Translations under genes and position numbers: made by a program
Source: an uncultured Methylomirabilota bacterium
Lineage (GTDB): Bacteria > Methylomirabilota > Methylomirabilia > Methylomirabilales > 2-02-FULL-66-22
DNA length: 64,000 bases
NCBI GenBank assembly: GCA_963705305.1
Contig: OY970067.1
Coordinates: 2,976,001-3,040,000, forward strand
Direction of reading: 5' to 3'
In this document: positions 7,431 through 34,876 of the stretch, in pieces
How the letters are laid out: the number at the start of each line of letters is the position of its first letter
Numbering within the stretch: position 1 is the first letter of the stretch
The notes under the pieces: generated by a model
Told to the model about the DNA's origin: nothing
What the model saw: the letters and a program-made list of their open reading frames with translations, nothing else
Databases searched by the model: none

Positions 7431-9116
7431 TCATTTGCGGGTCACCGGCGTGTGGGCGATGGGCAGGCCGAGGGCCAGCTTCATCTGCATATAGAGCTGG
7501 GCCGAGGCCATGAGGAAATAGTTATGCAGATTCATGGGCGAAAAGACCAGGCGGAACCATTCCGCAAACTTCCGCGTCCGCCGCCAGCGCGGCGGGGTCG
7601 GCTGGTAGATGATTGGTTTCAGGGTGTGGGGCACCACCACCATGCCGAGGATCGTGGAGGAGGTCAGCACGATGGTCTGAAAGATGAGGTTGAAGGCGCC
7701 CATGGGGCTGACGCACAGGCTCCGTCCGCCCAGCTTCAGGGCCAGGATGTCCGGGGACAGGAACACGTCCACCGGCCAGAGGTCGCGCACGCACGGGTTG
7801 ATCCAGGAGATCAGGATGAGCTGGGCCGGCAGCAAGACGGTCAGGGGCGGCATGGCGTTGGCCAGGAGCGCCCGAACGGCCTGGAAGGCCTTGCTGCGCA
7901 ACGGTGACATGCGGGAATCCCGAGACTTTCGCCGGTAGCGCGCCACGAACTTGACATCCACGGCGCCGCGCGCCCAGCGGGCGATCTGCCCCCAGGATTC
8001 CCGGCTGGTCAGGGGGGCCTGCCCCCAGGTGGGCATCTTCAAGGGCGCCACGCGGTAGCCCTCCATCACCACCTTGTAGCGGAACTGCATATCCTCGTTG
8101 TGGCGGTTGGGCTCGAAGTAGTCCACGGCACGGAAGTCCCAGAGGTCCATGCTGGTCCCCGGACCCAGGACGAGGTAATCACCCCGGCTCTGCATTTTCC
8201 CCATCTGGTAGAGGACGAAGCCCGTATTGTGCAGACGGGGGAGCATGGGAACCTTCCAGTAGTTCGCCGTGTAGGTCGTCAGGGACTGCAGGACGACCCC
8301 CCGGAGTCCCTGCGCCCGGGCGCGGGCGGCCTCCTCGTGGTGGGTGAACTCGCGGAATCCCAGATCCTGCGGGTGCAAGATCGTGTCGGCGTCGATGATC
8401 AACACCTTGACCCCGCCCGGACCGGCCGAGAATCGGTCCGCTTCGACCTGGTCGGCCAGCCAGCGGCCCGCCGTGGTCACAGAAGTGGCCTTGCACTTCA
8501 CCGGCATCCCGTCCGCGGGGTAAATGAAGGGTGCGACCTGCATGCGACTCGCGAACAGCGGAACGACCTCCTCCAACTTCTCCAACGTCACCCGGTCCTC
8601 CGCCTCGACGATGGGGACCAGCGTCACCAGCGACCTGGGATAGTGCAGCCGCTCCACCGACCGGAAGGTCTGGAACAGGACATGCCGATTGCCCTCGTTC
8701 TTGAGCGGCATGAAGATCGCATAATGGTTAAGCGGAAGGCCCAGCGCATGCAGGCGCCCCAGCCAGTCCACCTCCTGGTTTTGCAGGATGGCCTGGCGGG
8801 TCTTCTGGGCCCGCACCATGCTTACGATCAGGAAGCCGATCCAGAATGAGATGAAGCCGAAGCGGAACAGCTCGGCAGGGAAGGGGTCCCGCAGCAGATA
8901 CCGTAAGAGCGGGTAGACCGATAGGAGGAGGAGCGTGGTCAGGAAAGGCGCCACCTCCAGAAGGCGATCACCGCACCGGTGGAGAAAGGGATCCCGATGT
9001 GTTTGCGAGACTCGGGAGGCAAAAAAAACGGCTCGCCCGCTCTCCTGCTGTCCTGTCGGGCGAGCCATGGTCGAGGAGTCCGAGGCGGCCTCCGCCTCGG
9101 CAAAACTCGCGTCCAT
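7431..9116 (-). CDS. Membrane GT2 glycosyltransferase
   Basis: DAD, ED and QIARW (QxxRW) motifs, flanking TM segments. Start uncertain. Confidence 0.8.
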   Translation of the reverse strand: MDASFAEAEAASDSSTMARPTGQQESGRAVFFASRVSQTHRDPFLHRCGDRLLEVAPFLTTLLLLSVYPLLRYLLRDPFPAELFRFGFISFWIGFLIVSMVRAQKTRQAILQNQEVDWLGRLHALGLPLNHYAIFMPLKNEGNRHVLFQTFRSVERLHYPRSLVTLVPIVEAEDRVTLEKLEEVVPLFASRMQVAPFIYPADGMPVKCKATSVTTAGRWLADQVEADRFSAGPGGVKVLIIDADTILHPQDLGFREFTHHEEAARARAQGLRGVVLQSLTTYTANYWKVPMLPRLHNTGFVLYQMGKMQSRGDYLVLGPGTSMDLWDFRAVDYFEPNRHNEDMQFRYKVVMEGYRVAPLKMPTWGQAPLTSRESWGQIARWARGAVDVKFVARYRRKSRDSRMSPLRSKAFQAVRALLANAMPPLTVLLPAQLILISWINPCVRDLWPVDVFLSPDILALKLGGRSLCVSPMGAFNLIFQTIVLTSSTILGMVVVPHTLKPIIYQPTPPRWRRTRKFAEWFRLVFSPMNLHNYFLMASAQLYMQMKLALGLPIAHTPVTRK

Positions 9117-23842: not shown

Positions 23843-25362
23843 CCCTAATCTCCGGCTAAGAAGTTGAGGGGGATCGCGAATCACGCAGCGGCCCGCAGTG
23901 CGCGCGGCCCGCGGGGTTGGCATCGGCCTTGCTTGGTTTCACCCAGTGGGTGCAAACACCACAAGGAGGAGAGCGATGCCCGACACCTCGCCCCGGTTGC
24001 CGTTCGAGATCGATGACGCGATCGACCCCACGCTGGTCACGGGCCGGGCCGGGGTCCCGCTCGTGATCGAGCTGTTCCGCCAGCTCGGGGTGGCCCAGGC
24101 CGTCGACACCCACGTTGCGGTCAAGCAGCGGCAGCGCGGATTACCCCCCTCGCAGCTCGTGGAGAGTCTCGTCGCGTTGTGGACGAGCGGCGGGGACCGC
24201 TGCCAGGACCTCACGACGCTCCGGGAGGATCAGGCCCTGGCCACGCTGCTCGGCTACCCCCTGCCGGCCGCGACCACGGTCCGGGACTTCCTCGAGGCCT
24301 TCCACGTGGAGGACGGGCCGCTCTGGGTGGCCGGGCCCGCGGCCACGGTCCCCCTGGAGTCCGCCCCCTTGGCGGGCCTCGGACAGGCGAACCGGACGCT
24401 GGTCGCGGGCGTCCAGCGCGGGGCCCGGGCGGCGACGGCCACCCTGGATGTGGACGCGACGCTCGTCGAGAGCCACAAGGACGCGGCGACCGTGGCCTAC
24501 GACGGGACCCGGGGCTACCAGCCCGTCGTGGTCCTCTGGGCCGAGCACGATGTCATCGTGCACGACCAGTTCCGCGATGGCCAGGTGCCCGCCGGGTGCG
24601 GCAACGTGCGCGTCCTCGAACAGGCGGTGGCCAACTTGCCCCAGGGCGTGGACCGCATCTCCCTGCGGGCCGACAGCGCCCTCTACGAGACGGAGGTCCT
24701 CCGCTGGTGCGAGGAGAAGAAAATCGCCTACGCGATTAGCGCCGATATGTCCGCGCAGCTCCAGGCCGAGATCCGGCGCCTCCCCGCGGCCGCCTGGCAG
24801 CTCGAGCGGGAGGAGCCCGAGGCGATCCGGGCCTGGGCCGAAGTCCCCTACGTCCCCGAGGATGGCGATCACCGGAAGGCGCGGCCGTGCGTTCGCCGCT
24901 ACCTCGCGGTGCGTATCCAGCGACGCCAGGGGAGCCTCTTCGCCGACGGGAGTAGCGTGCAGTACTTCGCCGTGGTCACCAATCGGCCGGAGGATGGGCT
25001 CACGATCCTCCGGTGGCACCGGGAGAAAGCAGGGACCATCGAGCACACCCATCACGTCCTCAAGACCGAGCTGGCGGCCGCCGCGCTGCCCAGTGGGAAG
25101 TTCGGGGCGAACGCCGCCTGGTTCCGGCTGAACGTGCTCACCTACAACCTGCTCACCGCGCTCAAGCGGTTGACCTTACCCGGAGATCTCCGGACCGCCC
25201 GGCCGAAGCGTCTCCGGTTCCTGCTGTTCAACACCGTCGGGAAGGTCGTCGCGCATGCCCGACGGACGCTCTTGCGGCTCTCGGGCGCCCTGCAGCACGC
25301 CTTGCTCGTCCGGGCGCGGCGCAAGATCGCCCGGCTGGCCACCGCTTAGCCGGAGATTAGGG
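23843..25362 (+). mobile_element. IS1380-family insertion sequence, copy 2 (transposase 23976-25349)
   Basis: Same length, IRs and translated ORFs as 1659-3178; 5-bp TSD AAGCG (23838-23842, 25363-25367). Confidence 0.93.
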
Positions 25363-26654: not shown

Positions 26655-28128
26655 CTACGGGGCCACCGGAAGATGAACCGTGAAGGCTGTTCCCACACCC
26701 ACCTCGCTCCGCACGTCGATGGTCCCCTTGTGGTCCTCCACGATCCGGTGGGCGATGGCCATGCCGAGACCGAGCCCTTTCTCCTTGGTGGTGTAGAACG
26801 GATCGAAGATCCGCGACAGACGCTCGGGCGGGATACCCTGCCCCGTGTCGGAGATGGTCACACAGACGGCCGGCTCCGGGCGCGTGCCCGCCGGGCGGGA
26901 CACGGCGAACGTCATGGCGGGCACCGATTGCGTCGACAGCTTGAGGTCGCCCCCATTCGGCATGGCCTGCACGGCATTCGACACGAGGTTGCTGAAGCAG
27001 CGGTGGAGGCGCTTGCGATCCACCATCCCGTAGGGCAGATCGGGGTCGAATTCCCGAATGATCTTGATGCCCTGGTTCGTCGCCTGGGTTTCAAACAACT
27101 CCAGGATCTGCGAGAGGATCTCATTCAGGTTCACCGGCTCGAGCTGCACGTTCATCGGCCGTGCCAGCTCCATCATCTCTTCGATGACGGCCTGGACGCG
27201 CTCCAGCTCCCGCGGGACCACCCGGTCGAACTTCTCCCGGACGCTGGGGTCATCATGGTGCATGGACATCAGCTGAGAGAAGATCAGGATCGAGGTGAGG
27301 GGGTTCCGGATATCGTGAGCGATGCCGGCCGCCATCGTCCCCAGGGCGGCCAACCGGTCGGCTCGACGCAGGCGGTCCTCCAGCTCGCGCACGTGGGAGA
27401 GCTGGCGGCTCATCTCGTTGAAGGCGGCCGAGAGCTGGCCGAGCTCGTCGTGGGAATGCACCTCAATCTGCTGGTTGAAATCGCCGCGACCGACGGCGGC
27501 CACGCCCTGGGTGAGGGCCCGAAGAGGCTTGGTAATTCGTTCCGCCAGGACCACGGAACTTAGGCTGGAGAGAAGGACCGCCAAGAGGCCGAAGGCAACG
27601 ATCTGCCATCCGGTCCGTGTGATCTGTTTGTTCATGCCCTCCAGGGACACGCCGATGCGGACCGTTCCCCACCGTTGCGCAGAACCCTCGATCATGACCG
27701 GGACCGCCACATCGTATACGGTCTCGCTATGGGCGCCCGGGATGCTGCGCTGGCGGATCAGCGGTTTGTCCCCAGCCGCCGGCATCTCCTGGTAGTCCTG
27801 GAGAAGGTCCTTTTGGCTCAAGACATTCCGGACGCTGCTCGCGGCAACGTGCCCCTCCTTGTCCAAGACGACGGCGTATACGACGTTCAGCGCTTCTGGT
27901 AGCAACGGCTAGGCTCTGCTCCACTCCCACGTAATTGTATGTGACGAGAGAGTTAGCGCTGGCTTGGGCCAGGCCGCTGGCCAGGATAAGGGCTCGCTTT
28001 CTCACCTCCTCGACAATAGCATTCCGCTGTTCCCTTTGCGCCACGACAGCTGCGCTGCCCACGAGCAACACTACGAGCAGGTTGATGAACAAGATGAGCT
28101 TCGTTCGGATGGGGAGATGGTTGATCAT
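26655..28128 (-). pseudogene. Sensor histidine kinase (TM-periplasmic domain-TM-HAMP-HisKA-HATPase) split by a 1-nt frameshift near 27890-27905
   Basis: ORF from 28128 gives TM1 and the start of the sensor domain. ORF 27905-26655 gives the rest, including HAMP (DELGQL), H-box AHDIRNPL and G-boxes. May be a sequencing error. Confidence 0.8.
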
Positions 28129-28154: not shown

Positions 28155-29804
28155 CTACTTCTCCTTGTTCCGATCGAACCAGATCCGTTTCATGGGGATA
28201 TAAGGGTCTCCCAGCGCGCTCACCTCGATCCCCCTCACGTAGGGCTGGAAAATCCGCTCGTAGGAATAATAGCTCAGGACTATGAGTGGTGCCAGGTTCA
28301 TAATCTCCCGCTCTGCTTCCTGATAGAGAAGAAGCTTCCTCTGGGTGTCGCTCTCGAAACGGGCCCGCTGCAAGAGGGAGTCGACGGTGCGATTGTGGAG
28401 CTGCGTGAAATTGTCGGAGCTTCGAGAGTCGAACAGCTGTCCCAGGAACGTTTCGGGATCCGGCGTGTCAGCGTACCAACTGTACCGGAAGATCGGCAGC
28501 TTTCCCGCGTAGACCCCGGCATGGTATTCGGGCCAGTTTGTGTTGTAATGGATCTCTGCGTGAATTCCCACGGCAGCCAAGTACTTGATGATGGTCTGGT
28601 GCTCGGCCACAGCCTCGTCGTTCTTCCGCGCCGACCAAATATGAATGACCGGCAGGCCCTTTCCGCCCGGGTAGCCGGCAGCGGCCAAGAGGTCGGCTGA
28701 TTTTTTGGGATCGTAAGGATAGCCGACGAGATTTGGATCATAGCCGTAGGTGCCGGGCGGAAGAATCCCAGCAGCAGGGAGGTACTGGTCGTCATAGATC
28801 TCGTGCATGAGCCTGCGGCGGTCGATCGCGTAATTGATCGCTTGGCGAACCCGCGGATCGTCGAGGGGTTTCGTGGTGGTGTTGATCCCCAAGAAGGAGA
28901 TACCAAGAATGGGGCGACGGATGAACTGGTACCTTCGATCATTAAGCAGTTGCGTGCGCATTCGTGCTGGAATGCCTGAGTCCTCGAGATTCCCGCGCTC
29001 AAACTCTTCGAACATTTTGTCGAGGTTTTCGCCGGTGAAGATCCTGTACTCCAGCCGGTTGAGCTTCGGGGGCCCCTCGAAATAATCCCGATTGGCCGAT
29101 AGGACAATCTCCTTGTTCCGGACCCATCTGACAAACTTGAAGGGTCCTGTGCCCACGGGCTCCTGCCCAAAACGATCGCCCAAGCTTTTTACCACCTCTT
29201 GCGGGACGACCTTCGCGAAGCCGACAGCCAGCGAAGCGACGAAGGGCGACTGAGACTCTGTCAGAGTGATCCGAAGGGTTAGCGGATCGAGAGCCTCCAG
29301 GCCCTCCACACGGCTGGCGCGTCCCTCAGCGAACTCCCTGGCTCCTTTGATTTTCATGAAAAGGGTGGCGCCTGCGGATTTGGTTGCGGGATCCACGATG
29401 CGGGTGAAAGAGTATACGAAGTCCTGCGCGGTCACGTCCCGCCCGTTGTGGAATTTCACCCCCTTCTTTAGCTTGAAGGTCCACACCAATCCGTCGCGCG
29501 AGGCTGTCCATGTCTCGGCGATGGCAGGCTTTATGCCGAGAGCACCGTCGAATTGAACGAGCCCGTCGAAGAGTTGGTTGGCAATGGTACGACCGTAGAT
29601 GTCGTTGGGGCGAGCGGGATCCAGGGTTACCGGATCAGTCGCCAACGGACGACGGTAGGTGTCACCTTGGTGCTCGTCTCCGGACCGGACGAATGCCTCC
29701 CCACCCACGGCAGGGCAGGGAGGTACCCCTAAGGCGGCGACAAACGCCAACAAGAAGGCGATCTTCCAGCGCCGGAAGTCACACCACGATGATCTAGGAA
29801 CCAC
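28155..29804 (-). CDS. Family-5 (OppA/DppA-like) solute-binding protein with no adjacent permease or ATPase
   Basis: TLDPA, LFDGLV, WTFKLKKGVKFHNG..VTAQD, PVGTGPF, VRQAINYAID; N-terminal signal peptide. Confidence 0.92.
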   Translation of the reverse strand: MVPRSSWCDFRRWKIAFLLAFVAALGVPPCPAVGGEAFVRSGDEHQGDTYRRPLATDPVTLDPARPNDIYGRTIANQLFDGLVQFDGALGIKPAIAETWTASRDGLVWTFKLKKGVKFHNGRDVTAQDFVYSFTRIVDPATKSAGATLFMKIKGAREFAEGRASRVEGLEALDPLTLRITLTESQSPFVASLAVGFAKVVPQEVVKSLGDRFGQEPVGTGPFKFVRWVRNKEIVLSANRDYFEGPPKLNRLEYRIFTGENLDKMFEEFERGNLEDSGIPARMRTQLLNDRRYQFIRRPILGISFLGINTTTKPLDDPRVRQAINYAIDRRRLMHEIYDDQYLPAAGILPPGTYGYDPNLVGYPYDPKKSADLLAAAGYPGGKGLPVIHIWSARKNDEAVAEHQTIIKYLAAVGIHAEIHYNTNWPEYHAGVYAGKLPIFRYSWYADTPDPETFLGQLFDSRSSDNFTQLHNRTVDSLLQRARFESDTQRKLLLYQEAEREIMNLAPLIVLSYYSYERIFQPYVRGIEVSALGDPYIPMKRIWFDRNKEK

Positions 29805-30552
29805 CGATCATTCCCTCCCTGCAAAGCGAATACGCGACAAGCGCCAGGACATCATGCACACCTATGCGTACCGGGGCACCGATCATGCGAGCGGTGGGTG
29901 AAATGTCCGTCGTGGCCGCGGCAGGGAATCCATCGTAAGCCTGAGTCTGCGACCTTGTCACAACCTCCTCGCTACTACCGCCGTGCACCTGCGAAGCCAG
30001 CAGGGGTCATGGCGGACACTTCTTCGGACACACTCTGACAACTAATAAAAGGTTGTCAAGATAAATTCACGGGGGTTGAACGCATCTGAACTGATTACAT
30101 TGTGACAGGGAGGAAACAGGGGGGACCCAATTCCTCGCCGGCGCCTCAGTCAGATGGTGGGCGCGCGCGTCCTGCGGTTCGGAATCTCGAAGTGATGAGC
30201 GAGCCACGGATGGCGAGAAAGCCGAGCGGGAAGGGTAGACGGCAGAAACAGTAGCCGGAGTTGCTTGGCCGGCTTCATTCTTGGGGAAACCCCACTTGGT
30301 TCTTCAGGGGCACTCGCCCGCCCCCGGCGTCAAAGGGGACGACAACTCGAACCGCCGAAGGGGGGCGGAATGCAGAGCGGAGCCCTTGAAGATAAGGTGT
30401 CCGCTCAAGTCTAGCCTTTCGTCCATGGACCAGTTGGCGTCGAGGCTGTTGTAGCGTTGGCGCAAGCATCCGACCGGGAGGTCGGAGAGTTGACTGGACT
30501 GCTGGCTGGTAGGCCGCCGGAGAACGAGGTATTTTTCGTGCGCACTAAACAC

Positions 30553-30583
30553 AAAAAGGGGATGAGGCTCACGCCTCATCCCC
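30553..30583 (-). terminator. Intrinsic terminator of the small peptide gene
   Basis: Minus strand GGGGATGAGGC-GTGA-GCCTCATCCCC followed by TTTTT. Confidence 0.85.
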
Positions 30584-30619
30584 GGAAGTGTCGAGTATGC
30601 TGATGTGAACTCGGTCAGG

Positions 30620-30742
30620 CTACATGCCCCCTTCGGCAAAACCGGTGCGGCTGAACACCTGGGTATTGGACTGCACTTCCATCGCCGGAACGATCGCGAG
30701 GAGGCCGATCACCACCAGCACCAGGACGATGATCTTCTTCAT
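30620..30742 (-). CDS. 40-aa secreted peptide precursor MKKIIVLVLVVIGLLAIVPAMEVQSNTQVFSRTGFAEGGM (absent from the ORF track)
   Basis: AAAAGGAG RBS 8 nt before ATG, Sec-type signal peptide, high-GC3 codons in an AT-richer spacer, own promoter and terminator. Confidence 0.85.
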   Translation of the reverse strand: MKKIIVLVLVVIGLLAIVPAMEVQSNTQVFSRTGFAEGGM

Positions 30743-30833
30743 GACGGTTTCTCCTTTTGTTCGATTTGAGATTTCCAATAAGTCCATCTTGACTCAGTTT
30801 TCGGCGTTTCGCTGTTCTCTGGGCCGGAAGTAA

Positions 30834-30849
30834 AGCAGGGCGTATGCCA
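30834..30849 (-). promoter_or_regulatory. sigma54 (-24/-12) promoter
   Basis: Minus strand TGGCATACGCCCTGCT (GG-N10-GC), about 90 bp upstream of the peptide ATG; adjacent gene is a GAFTGA activator. Confidence 0.75.
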
Positions 30850-30937
30850 TAGCAAAGCAAAAGAGGCGGGAGGTTCGGAAATTCCTGATCAATAAAGGAG
30901 TTAACCCTTTATGGAGTAGGCTAGTGCGGAATACGTG

Positions 30938-30957
30938 TTGCCTAAATTTTTAGGCAA
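30938..30957. promoter_or_regulatory. Palindromic candidate enhancer (UAS)
   Basis: TTGCCTAAA-TT-TTTAGGCAA, about 90-110 bp upstream of the -24 box; IHF-like AATAAAGGAGTTA (30891-30903) lies in between. Confidence 0.6.
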
Positions 30958-31082
30958 GTAATTGTGACAGGATCAAGGATGTATTGAGAAAAACGCTCTA
31001 ACATTCTTTTCTGAAAGGACTTATCGCAACCTTAGATTTTTTGTGCAATGTGCATAAGGAATTGAGCGACGGTGGGTTTGGC

Positions 31083-32489
31083 CTAAGGGGTGGGAACATG
31101 CTGGCGGGATTCGATACCGAGACGTTGGAGCTTCCAGAGCAGGGTGTTTCGATGCAAGCCGAGGACGCGGGCGGCCTCGCTTTGGTTCCACTGAACCTTC
31201 TCCAGGATGCTGAGGATGTATTGCCGCTCGAAGTGATTCCTGGCCTCGCGCAGGCTGAGCCCATTCTTCTGGGTCCGCTCGATCACGTCGTGGCCCAGAA
31301 TGGAGAGGTCCAGGGGGAGCTCTCGCAGAGAGATGGTCTCGCTCTGCGCCAGGGCCACCGCCCGCTCGATGACATTCTCCAGCTCGCGGACGTTGCCGGG
31401 CCAGTCGTATTGGTAGAGGGCCGCCGTGGCCCCGGCGGAAAAACCCCGGACGTGGCGATTGAATTCCCGGTTGTATTTGGCGATGAAGTGCTCGACCAGG
31501 AGCGGGATGTCGTCCCGGCGATGGCGCAGCGGGGGCAGGGTGATGGGGATGACATTCAACCGGTAGTACAGATCCTCCCGGAAGCTCCCCTCCTCCACGG
31601 CCTTCTTCAGGTCCCGGTTGGTGGCGGCGATGACCCGGACGTCGATCTTGATGGTCCGGGTCCCCCCCACCCGCTCGATCTCCCGCTCCTGGAGGGCGCG
31701 GAGGATCTTCGCCTGGAGGTCCAGGCGCATGGAGCCCACCTCGTCCAGGAACAGGCTCCCCCCGGTGGCGAGCTCGAACTTCCCCACCTTGGTGGCGATG
31801 GCCCCGGTGAAGGCCCCCTTCTCATGGCCGAACAGCTCCGACTCCAGGAGCTCGGAGGGGATGGCGGCGCAGTTGACGGCGACGAACAGCCGCTGGGCGC
31901 GGTGGCTCTGCTGGTGGATGGCGCGCGCCAGCACCTCTTTGCCGGTGCCGCTCTCGCCGCTGAGCAGGATCGTGGCGTTGTTGTCGGCGATACGGGAGAT
32001 GAGCGCGTAGATCTCCTGCATGCGGGAGTTGCGTCCCACCAGATTCTCAAAGCGGCGTTCCCGCGCCACTTCGGATCGGAGGTACAGCACCTCCTTCACC
32101 AGCTCCTGTTTCTCGACCACTCGCTTGATGAGGGCCAGGATCTCGTGGACATCGAACGGCTTCGTGATGTAATCGGTGGCGCCCAGCTTGATGGCCTCGA
32201 CCGCCGTCTTGAGGGATTTGACCGCCGTCACCACGACGACATCGGTCTGGTCGCTGAGCTCTCGGATCCGGCGGAGCACTTCGATGCCGTCCATGCCGGG
32301 CATGCGGATGTCGAGCAGAACCAGATTGACGTCCTGCGTGCTCAAGATGCGAAGGGCCTCCGGGCCGCTCGCGGCGAAAAGGAGCTCGTAGTCCTTGGAG
32401 AGCACGGCCTCGAAGGATTCCCGGACACCGATGTCGTCGTCCACCACCAGGACGCTTGGGCAAACGGATTGTGCCTCGCCGTTTGACAT
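31083..32489 (-). CDS. sigma54-dependent response regulator (NtrC/AtoC family)
   Basis: REC domain (VVDDD, LLDIRMP), GESGTGKE, ESELFGHEKGAFTGA, WPGNVREL, Fis-type HTH. Confidence 0.96.
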   Translation of the reverse strand: MSNGEAQSVCPSVLVVDDDIGVRESFEAVLSKDYELLFAASGPEALRILSTQDVNLVLLDIRMPGMDGIEVLRRIRELSDQTDVVVVTAVKSLKTAVEAIKLGATDYITKPFDVHEILALIKRVVEKQELVKEVLYLRSEVARERRFENLVGRNSRMQEIYALISRIADNNATILLSGESGTGKEVLARAIHQQSHRAQRLFVAVNCAAIPSELLESELFGHEKGAFTGAIATKVGKFELATGGSLFLDEVGSMRLDLQAKILRALQEREIERVGGTRTIKIDVRVIAATNRDLKKAVEEGSFREDLYYRLNVIPITLPPLRHRRDDIPLLVEHFIAKYNREFNRHVRGFSAGATAALYQYDWPGNVRELENVIERAVALAQSETISLRELPLDLSILGHDVIERTQKNGLSLREARNHFERQYILSILEKVQWNQSEAARVLGLHRNTLLWKLQRLGIESRQHVPTP

Positions 32490-32688
32490 GCCGTCTTCCT
32501 CCGCGGATCCCCCCTGGCCGGTGTCGGGGCCGCGACGATCCACCCGGAAGATAGGCCGTCTGACCTCCCCGGGATTAGGGCCTACGTAGCCCAAACGGCA
32601 GGGGTTGTCAAGCCTAAAGCCCTCGCCCGGCGCGCCTTGACAAGGGGTGCATAGTGTGCGACGGTCGGCTCGTCTCGCGGAAGGCGGT

Positions 32689-34799: not shown

Positions 34800-34876
34800 G
34801 GGCGCTTAGCTCAGATGGTTAGAGCGCCGTCTTCACACGGCGGAGGTCACTGGTTCGATCCCAGTAGCGCCCACCA
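34800..34876 (+). tRNA. tRNA-Val(CAC)
   Basis: GGGCGCT/AGCGCCC acceptor stem, D-arm, anticodon arm CCGTC-TTCACAC-GGCGG, GGTTCGATCCC T-arm, encoded CCA. Confidence 0.95.

Follow-up and report, generated by a model that had tools for sequence, protein, structure and literature searches.

A conserved exported-type peptide gene in a sigma-54 regulator, binding protein and kinase cassette of Methylomirabilota: a candidate self-regulated signalling locus

Signalling by peptides encoded in small genes is textbook knowledge for Firmicutes. In the Rap-Phr pairs of Bacillus, a precursor of about 40 residues (range about 38-57) starts with a Sec-type signal and ends in a brief hydrophilic segment, its gene adjoins the rap gene on the 3' side or overlaps it, the active penta- or hexapeptide comes from a conserved C-terminus, and an OppA-family protein is involved in sensing, while in ComC-ComDE, AgrD-AgrCA and ComX-ComP the peptide gene shares one locus with a kinase and a regulator. 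Two-component systems also induce small feedback proteins, as in MgrB-PhoQ, ZraP-ZraSR and CpxP-CpxA, and zraP, which adjoins zraSR, has a sigma-54 promoter; AioR, the regulator of AioXSR, is itself a sigma-54 activator. To our knowledge, signalling by small-gene-encoded peptides is almost unknown in diderm bacteria, and kinases assisted by a solute-binding protein (SBP) are known to us for external small molecules only. The review PMC8050422 describes an orphan SBP gene beside a periplasmic Cache-type kinase in CBP-ChiS, AioX-AioS-AioR, LuxP-LuxQ and TorT-TorS, with a family-5 SBP controlling the kinase in CBP-ChiS and an sCache-like kinase in AioX-AioS, and states that family-5 binding proteins usually take exogenous ligands. 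Here the window, a 64,000-nucleotide (nt) stretch of an uncultured Methylomirabilota bacterium (assembly GCA_963705305.1, contig OY970067.1, positions 2,976,001 to 3,040,000), was analysed around a 40-codon gene that lies on the minus strand between the genes for a sigma-54-dependent response regulator and an orphan SBP followed by a histidine kinase. As judged from the locus and its relatives, the exported tail of the encoded peptide may be the cognate ligand or modulator of the adjacent SBP and kinase, acting in a self-regulated loop, a reading to which we give an even chance.

The open reading frame (ORF) of the peptide begins with ATG at 30742..30740 and ends with TAG at 30622..30620. Its product, MKKIIVLVLVVIGLLAIVPAMEVQSNTQVFSRTGFAEGGM, is laid out as MKK, a 15-residue hydrophobic stretch, P19-A-M-E22 and a 20-residue hydrophilic tail. 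The preliminary description had pointed to MKK, a hydrophobic core and VPA behind a strong AAGGAG ribosome-binding site, and all of these are present on the minus strand; by inspection, MKK followed by 15 hydrophobic residues and VPA/ME resembles an export signal, in keeping with the secreted nature proposed there. An in-frame ATG at 30787 offers an alternative start giving a product of 55 amino acids (aa), and the ribosome-binding site and the relatives support the MKK start. Of 20 same-genus genomes, 12 have an orthologue in the corresponding position with 74-87% identity, and in at least three of the eight lacking a peptide match (G001, G004 and G019) a contig end interrupts the locus. Over the 37 codons compared among the 12 orthologues, variable sites fell 15/3/27 at the three codon positions, and the first 37 codons gave a mean proportion of non-synonymous differences (pN) of 0.095 and of synonymous differences (pS) of 0.401 (pN/pS 0.24). 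Tail codons 21-37 were constrained like the hydrophobic part (pN 0.109 vs 0.082; tail pS 0.481). The peptide gene is real and under purifying selection, which bears out its earlier designation as a genuine small gene. Two plus-strand ORFs antisense to the gene (30605..30769 and 30624..30833) were rejected, the codon-position pattern fitting the minus frame instead. The exact 40-aa protein was found in a public protein collection (P0001). A search of sequencing runs for the locus listed no RNA run, the only run listed being one of DNA with a 0.14 share of words. The gene is single-copy in the window genome and lies on a contig of 5.65 Mb with 66% G+C, the 300 nt 5' of the ORF having only 42% G+C.

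Elsewhere the gene occurs in one to four tandem copies. Within the genus, G013 (L026) has two copies, and G005 (L010/L021) and G010 (L007/L025) have three each, those of G005 being identical. The two copies at L075 (G242) and the four at L080 (G243) are non-identical, with tails that contain Cys and end in GGGGGW.

The peptide matched 0 Pfam and 0 NCBIfam families. Single-sequence searches gave only 14 proteins and 13 representative clusters, and a profile of diverse members (A3), for which 8,000 candidates were scored, recovered at least 1,558 clusters at E<=0.001. These clusters are unnamed or "hypothetical" throughout, those with a named organism being from Candidatus Rokubacteria. A word-based search of genome contigs, seeded by the signal-peptide part only, retrieved one true relative, from a Candidatus Methylomirabilota metagenome-assembled genome (MAG); its other two matches, in Kordia and in a Clostridia MAG, were dismissed as chance matches. 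In the ESM Atlas the best cluster (score 0.85) was again "hypothetical" and is a weak lead, and a PapR cluster at rank 7 (score 0.77) was below the level that carries weight. A second profile (A1) matched 82 of 251 phylum genomes, with 12 of 20 in the genus, 63 of 159 in family f9, 0 of 15 in f4 and 0 of 20 in f7; these counts take in two unpublished genomes (G075 and G217) and are too low, the profile having missed peptides that were later found by eye in cassettes.

The family shares a basic N-terminus, a 15-residue hydrophobic segment, P-x-x-E, a variable Ser/Thr-rich core, F-x-x-[IV]-G-x-A-[DE] and a Gly-rich end of varying length. Columns M1, P19, E22 and G34 are invariant and K3, L15, F30 and A36 nearly so. 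In the 120 best relatives, the distance from the basic residue to the Pro is exactly 15 hydrophobic residues in every case, and P-x-x-E reads PVIE in 100, PVLE in 10, PIIE in 7 and PLIE in 3. Comparison of genus with class showed that the N-terminal segment keeps its hydrophobic character only and that the tail is conserved. The mature signal had been expected at an AEGGM-like C-terminus; the last residues proved the most variable of all, the ends within the genus being GGM, GGP, GGN, GGGGE and GDGGGGE and the final residue across the 120 best relatives being G (37), D (33), E (25), then F, A, W, Y and others. At orthologous loci, conservation thus covers the ORF, its signal-like region, P-x-x-E and F-x-x-x-G-x-A-[DE]-G, and does not extend to the extreme C-terminus. 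Two other candidate classes were discarded, a lipoprotein for want of a Cys in the peptide and a type I toxin in view of the conserved hydrophilic tail and cassette.

The likeness to Phr that had been proposed is one of size and layout and did not hold at the level of family. No Rap/TPR receptor gene and no Opp permease gene accompany the peptide gene, whose product lacks sequence similarity to Phr; its C-terminus is not conserved, and its phylum, Methylomirabilota, is diderm and not part of the Firmicutes. In all 10 of 10 genus loci, the gene upstream encodes a sigma-54 regulator and those downstream an SBP_bac_5 protein and a kinase. The putative receptor is a periplasmic SBP together with a histidine kinase, in contrast to the cytoplasmic regulators that imported Phr peptides act on. 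The broader suggestion of a signalling-peptide layout fared better, with a signalling locus and a conserved, presumably functional tail in its favour.

On the minus strand the order is sigma-54 response regulator, peptide, SBP_bac_5 protein and sCache histidine kinase (Table 1), and both order and orientation are kept in 10/10 genus loci. At class level the peptide gene follows the regulator gene in 15/15 loci, with the SBP gene next in 14, the fifteenth stopping at a contig edge; in these class-level loci the kinase has an extra PAS domain and is followed by a hybrid kinase, with Lon and a branched-chain permease as outer neighbours. Outer flanking genes vary between lineages, those of the window being uvrC, a GHMP kinase, an insertion sequence (IS) transposase, proC and divIVA. 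The kinase sensor domain (query from L023) was detected in 145 of 251 genomes, a count that takes in the unpublished G075, G216 and G217. By matching the tables by hand, 63 peptide matches in 62 of the 82 peptide-positive genomes were found to be followed on their own contig and strand by the kinase sensor at a distance of 1.7-4.0 kb; the remaining matches are mostly at contig ends, and one in G117 is partial and probably spurious. Among 11 genomes positive for the sensor and negative for the peptide profile, 10 have a regulator and an SBP with 1-4 peptide genes between them when inspected by eye, including the multi-copy loci L075 and L080, and the eleventh (L086) has a kinase homologue only, lacking SBP and regulator matches as well as any peptide candidate in the pattern scan. 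No regulator-SBP cassette without a peptide gene was found among those examined, and the peptide gene therefore appears to be an obligatory member of a four-gene module. Two tandem SBP_bac_5 genes lie between peptide and kinase in L066 (G249) and L072 (G248), and G249 carries two separate cassettes on different contigs.

Table 1. Features of the peptide locus, in positions of the window
Feature	Position	Strand	Evidence or remarks
Peptide ORF, 40 codons; putative exported pre-peptide	30742..30620	minus	Sequence and relatives
Shine-Dalgarno AAGGAG	30756..30751	minus	8 nt 5' of ATG; GGAGG-type sites at the same place in relatives
Sigma-54-dependent response regulator (REC, AAA+ Sigma54_activat, Fis-type HTH_8)	31083..32492	minus	Pfam
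Orphan family 5 periplasmic binding protein (DppA/OppA/HbpA-like)	28155..29804	minus	SBP_bac_5, 4.2e-90
Sensor histidine kinase (TM1, periplasmic sCache_3_2, TM2, HAMP, HisKA, HATPase; TM, transmembrane segment)	26655..28128	minus	Pfam, relatives
Sigma-54 (-24/-12) promoter TGGCAT-ACGCC-CTGCT	30849..30834	minus	GG 30848-30847, GC 30836-30835, canonical spacing
Proximal palindrome TTGCCTAAAAATTTAGGCAA; putative enhancer	30957..30938		About 100 nt 5' of the -24 element
Distal putative enhancer sites, TGCAC-N8-GTGCA type, degenerate here	31030..31067		Just 3' of the regulator stop
Intrinsic terminator	30548..30583	minus	11-bp stem (8 G-C), 4-nt loop, T-run; recurs in relatives
753-nt spacer, terminator to SBP gene	29805..30557	minus	Compared with about 240-400 nt in relatives

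In the window and the class-level neighbourhoods, the conserved cassette holds no genes for export, processing, modification or immunity. This bears on the possibility that the peptide is the precursor of a ribosomally made, post-translationally modified peptide, which we regard as scarcely plausible. The gene is short and precursor-like and sometimes present in several non-identical tandem copies, and 10.64898/2026.03.20.713087 reports that biosynthetic clusters abound in the phylum; against this, the conserved neighbours are only the regulator, SBP and kinase, with no conserved modifying enzyme, protease or transporter, and the N-terminal part is like a Sec signal and not like the leader of such a precursor. 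The same source also describes a Nitrospira family of small proteins of 51 aa beside two-component and Uvr genes, which is set apart from the window peptide by length, phylum and neighbours.

The SBP is an orphan, with no adjoining ABC permease or ATPase gene in the window or the genus neighbourhoods, and it is kept beside the periplasmic-sensor kinase in all genus and class loci where the contig shows it. Its nearest solved structures are peptide binders, namely 8upi (1e-71), HbpA (1e-55) and DppA (1dpp; 2.7e-51), then OppA and MppA, and nickel and opine binders score lower. Residue D397 (500-residue mature numbering) aligns with the Asp of the "WTGD" motif of 1dpp and is invariant in 18/18 cassette SBPs. 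We take the corresponding Asp of DppA/OppA to hold the free alpha-amino group of the bound peptide, and its invariance here suggests a ligand with a free N-terminus. By comparison, R344, which aligns with the Arg of DppA that presumably binds the dipeptide carboxylate, is not conserved in the cassette SBPs. Prediction of a complex between the SBP (A2) and the 40-aa pre-peptide (A1), made without controls, scored 0.01 in both runs and is evidence neither way.

In this assembly the kinase gene of the window is split between two frames, as ORFs 28128..27727 and 27905..26655, by what looks like a 1-nt frameshift at about 27890-27905. Relatives read ...VATGSPDVVYAVV... in one frame, and eight genus relatives are intact at the same place; the frameshift would be either an assembly indel error or a naturally broken sensor. 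As in AioXSR, the regulator of the cassette is also a sigma-54 activator. The SBP-dependent kinases covered in PMC8050422 respond to an external small molecule (chitin oligosaccharide, arsenite, autoinducer-2 or trimethylamine N-oxide), whereas here a gene-encoded, exported-type peptide appears to be obligatory and co-varies with the SBP.

This co-variation was seen within the genus, where the peptide tails are of two types. The short type, ...G[FL]A[ED]GG[MPN] (40 aa), is found in the window genome, G007, G012, G013, G015 and G020, and the long type, ...VGMAE[GS](D)GGG[EDG] (42-44 aa), in G003, G005, G006, G010 and G014. Pairwise identity within vs between types was 73.1% vs 50.7% for the periplasmic sensor of the kinase (lowest within 66.9%, highest between 56.1%) and 79.7% vs 56.0% for the SBP (lowest within 63.7%, highest between 59.2%), with no overlap in either case. 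The first transmembrane segment (TM1) of the kinase gave 70.3% vs 39.7%, while the values were close for the cytoplasmic part of the kinase (75.8% vs 72.7%) and for the regulator (87.5% vs 88.0%). In the SBP tree each tail type formed a clade with 100/100 support, the short clade being sister to an SBP from another family (97/95). In the tree of the regulator with the cytoplasmic part of the kinase (7 genomes), G013 (short) was sister to G014 (long) with 100/99 support, and monophyly of the short type was rejected with a log-likelihood difference of 108 (approximately unbiased test, p = 4.7e-5), a test weakened by the short-type group having been named after the regulator tree was seen. For G013 against G014, nucleotide identity was 85-94% across the regulator gene, dropped to 45-67% over the stretch that begins with the peptide and ends with the kinase sensor, and rose to 93-97% beyond it, starting at TM2/HAMP; the swapped block has its left edge in the regulator-peptide spacer and its right edge exactly at TM2/HAMP. 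Across 21 loci, tail distance tracked SBP distance with the regulator controlled (partial Mantel r = 0.56, p = 0.0002) and also tracked the regulator with the SBP controlled (partial r = 0.38, p = 0.0004), the related genomes compared not being independent. Peptide tail, SBP and kinase sensor form one mosaic block.

The mosaic resembles pherotype loci, and such a pattern is known from the specificity loci agr, comCD and comQXP. As there, a hypervariable block of peptide and sensor lies between a conserved regulator and a conserved kinase transmitter, the flanks differing from it in history, and the promoter is apparently driven by the regulator of the locus itself; peptide and sensor diverge together while regulator and transmitter are conserved, a pattern that linkage alone could also produce. 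The cassette departs from the Com and Agr loci in having no dedicated exporter or maturase (ComAB, AgrB, ComQ), a Sec-type N-terminus instead of a GG leader, a periplasmic sCache kinase instead of a polytopic membrane sensor, and in addition an SBP and a regulator of the sigma-54 activator class. The layout is thus reminiscent of a peptide autoinducer circuit, here apparently built from an SBP and a kinase and driven by sigma-54.

A sigma-54 promoter precedes the peptide gene, with the transcription start probably near 30823. The sequence TGGCAY-N5-(C/A)TGCT is kept in 11/11 genus loci while its flanks diverge and is the sole such site from regulator to SBP in each of them; in class loci, a pattern search placed TGGC-N7-TTGC 74-91 nt 5' of the ATG in 11/12, and visual inspection added the twelfth (L066). 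The window genome has rpoN. A TGC..N..GCA column block matching the proximal palindrome is conserved in the genus alignment, TGCAC...TGCACAAAAAAT blocks are conserved in 10 genus loci, and class-level loci have repeated TGCAC-N7/8-GTGCA palindromes, which suggests enhancer sites bound by the NtrC-type regulator. This regulator probably starts at MSNGEAQ, the listed ORF extending to 32780, and its nearest NCBIfam models are AtoC, NtrC and ZraR, none at cut-off. Cassette, promoter and enhancer-like sites are conserved, and a conserved sigma-54 promoter and palindromes beside a sigma-54 activator gene suggest that the peptide promoter may depend on this regulator. The genome has 59 strict -24/-12 matches, of which this locus alone carries a TGTGCA-N3-TGCACA-like site in the 320 nt before it; a single repeated IS accounts for 26 of the other 58. 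Scanning the whole genome for clusters of TGCAC-N8-GTGCA sites gave one unrelated pair and named no trans targets, the degenerate sites of the window itself being missed.

The repeated IS carries an exact 16-mer, TGGCATCGGCCTTGCT, which is like a sigma-54 promoter and has 26 genomic copies with identical downstream spacing, including those at about 1734 and 23918 of the window; at 23898..25349 (plus strand) TGGCATCGGCCTTGCT is part of a DDE_Tnp_1_4 transposase gene. This high-copy IS inflates any -24/-12 promoter scan.

The promoter can also be read as that of an output gene, in which case the SBP and kinase would respond to a ligand from outside, for instance oligopeptides in the environment, and the peptide would be a product of the response (an envelope-stress, antimicrobial or metal-binding peptide) rather than the ligand of the sensor. 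The peptide gene is the first, and in the genus the sole, gene directly behind the promoter, and its tandem copies and terminator favour a high peptide output; in addition, family-5 SBPs mostly bind exogenous ligands according to PMC8050422. Such an effector is nevertheless improbable in our judgement, as every regulator-SBP cassette examined has the peptide gene, the tail type tracks the SBP and kinase sensor rather than the regulator, and genes for immunity, modification and export are missing from the cassette.

Under the favoured ligand-or-modulator reading, the phosphorylated regulator would bind the upstream palindromes and fire the sigma-54 promoter of the peptide gene, and Sec would insert or export the pre-peptide by means of MKK and the 15-residue hydrophobic segment. 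The hydrophilic tail would then reach the periplasm, either cleaved to about 15-25 residues or still tethered, and be recognised by the adjacent SBP and/or the periplasmic domain of the kinase, which would set the phosphorylation of the regulator and so close a self-regulating loop. Export, cleavage, binding, the sign of the feedback and action between or within cells are all inferred in this scheme, and within it a released signal between cells is about as likely as a purely cell-autonomous one.

Several points, together with the reservations attached above to the tree and Mantel tests, weigh against this scheme. The peptide is inside the swapped block, so its co-variation with the SBP could be hitch-hiking and not co-evolution, and only about two swap events are visible. 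The SBP could bind environmental peptides instead, and the frameshifted kinase may mean that the loop is broken in this genome, unless it is an assembly indel. A periplasmic peptide of about 2 kDa has no evident way out, which argues against cell-to-cell signalling because the phylum is diderm and the cassette has no exporter or processing gene. Finally, the fixed 15-residue length and P-x-x-E fit a retained anchor as well as a cleaved signal.

The last point leads to the alternative of a cell-autonomous feedback modulator, either in the inner membrane (N-terminus in, tail out) or periplasmic, which would damp or prime its own kinase or SBP with no intercellular communication. A fixed hydrophobic length followed by P-x-x-E would be expected of a membrane-embedded element, the peptide promoter adjoins the gene of its own regulator and would be induced from there, the cassette has no exporter that crosses the outer membrane, and the nearest NCBIfam models of the two-component pair include ZraS/ZraR, below cut-off. 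MgrB, ZraP and CpxP are likewise small envelope proteins whose genes are driven by the system's own regulator; they are unrelated in sequence to the peptide, their systems are without an SBP, and we know of no allelic types co-varying with the sensor in them. A retained anchor is disfavoured by the hydrophobic segment, which from genus to class keeps its character only while the tail is conserved and which is the same in both genus tail types, unlike the strongly type-dependent TM1 of the kinase. The invariant SBP Asp, in the role given above, further suggests a ligand with a free N-terminus, and deep, swapped allelic types are better known from social signal-receptor loci. On balance we consider such a modulator rather unlikely.

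Downstream of the peptide gene, an 11-bp-stem terminator had been noted at 37 nt, and a stem-loop (30583..30558) followed by TTTTTGTGTT was indeed found 36-37 nt 3' of the peptide stop. This site alone proves little because three terminator-like sites were found in the 2-kb region vs 1.9 expected by chance; it counts mainly by its recurrence after the orthologues in L002, L004 and L012. In the genus, the terminator separates the peptide gene from the SBP gene, whereas in several class loci the SBP start is only 11-23 nt after the peptide stop, within or beside a strong hairpin, and the ancestral unit therefore looks to be a peptide-SBP-kinase operon behind the sigma-54 promoter. The earlier view of the peptide gene as its own transcription unit thus applies to the genus, with its own promoter and terminator, while in the class at large it heads this operon as its first cistron.

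In L058-L072, within the first 150 nt past the peptide stop, a hairpin with one purine-rich and one pyrimidine-rich arm covers or adjoins the SBP start, and in L072 the SBP ATG is within the hairpin loop; the corresponding hairpin of the window genus has gained a T-run and become terminator-like. The post-peptide hairpin may set the ratio of peptide to SBP. A different hairpin, CCCTC-ATGG-GAGGG, is present in the leaders of L058-L071 between promoter and peptide ATG (e.g. L058, about 8680-8710), with a conserved CAUGG-like loop and compensatory stem changes, and is absent in the window genus.

These hairpins raise the question of whether the ORF is a leader acting mainly in cis, its translation being coupled to the downstream hairpin or terminator so as to set SBP and kinase expression, with a functionless product. 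The terminator close behind the ORF in the genus and the purine/pyrimidine hairpin at or near the SBP start in the class would suit such a role. Purifying selection acts over the whole amino-acid sequence, however, including codons 21-37 with their low pN relative to pS, the export-type N-terminus is kept in 120/120 relatives, and the gene occurs in 2-4 tandem copies. An arrest peptide of the Sec-monitoring SecM/MifM kind was rejected because a chain of 40-48 residues is so short that its signal would not yet have left the ribosome tunnel when the stop codon is reached, an argument from tunnel length that joins established knowledge with inference. A leader function is, in our estimate, very improbable.

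The spacer between terminator and SBP gene is unique in the genome and had no nucleotide match in 10 genus loci. It contains a sigma-70-like site (29961..29932), and a 111-aa ORF of the spacer region (30304..30639) had no Pfam match. Rfam over 29700-31150 gave only gut-2 at E = 0.78; the sole Rfam match of the window at gathering score is a tRNA gene at 34800-34873 on the plus strand.

The literature covered by full-text searches held no description of the peptide family or of a peptide-SBP-kinase-sigma-54 cassette. The single parts are of known kinds; what is new is the way they are combined, the phylum concerned and the polymorphism of types. The peptide may represent a kind of self-made signal undescribed in such bacteria. 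More tentatively, and on the unlikely side, it could be a gene-encoded, Sec-exported, unmodified peptide pheromone in a diderm phylum (Methylomirabilota including Rokubacteria), sensed in the periplasm by a DppA/OppA-like SBP docking on the sCache kinase, with sigma-54 amplification and pherotypes swapped by recombination between close relatives.

The cassette is kept throughout an entire class of uncultured bacteria that are abundant in soil and sediment, and it joins peptide signalling with an SBP-assisted kinase in a locus whose mosaic evolution is typical of signal-receptor specificity loci. If the ligand-or-modulator reading is true, the locus would provide a defined peptide-receptor pair that could be tested with synthetic peptides and purified proteins, with no need for cultivation, as well as a function for one of many orphan small-protein families and perhaps a way into the study of social behaviour or self-recognition among Rokubacteria-like bacteria. 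If the peptide is instead a feedback modulator, it would be a new accessory component of sigma-54 two-component systems.

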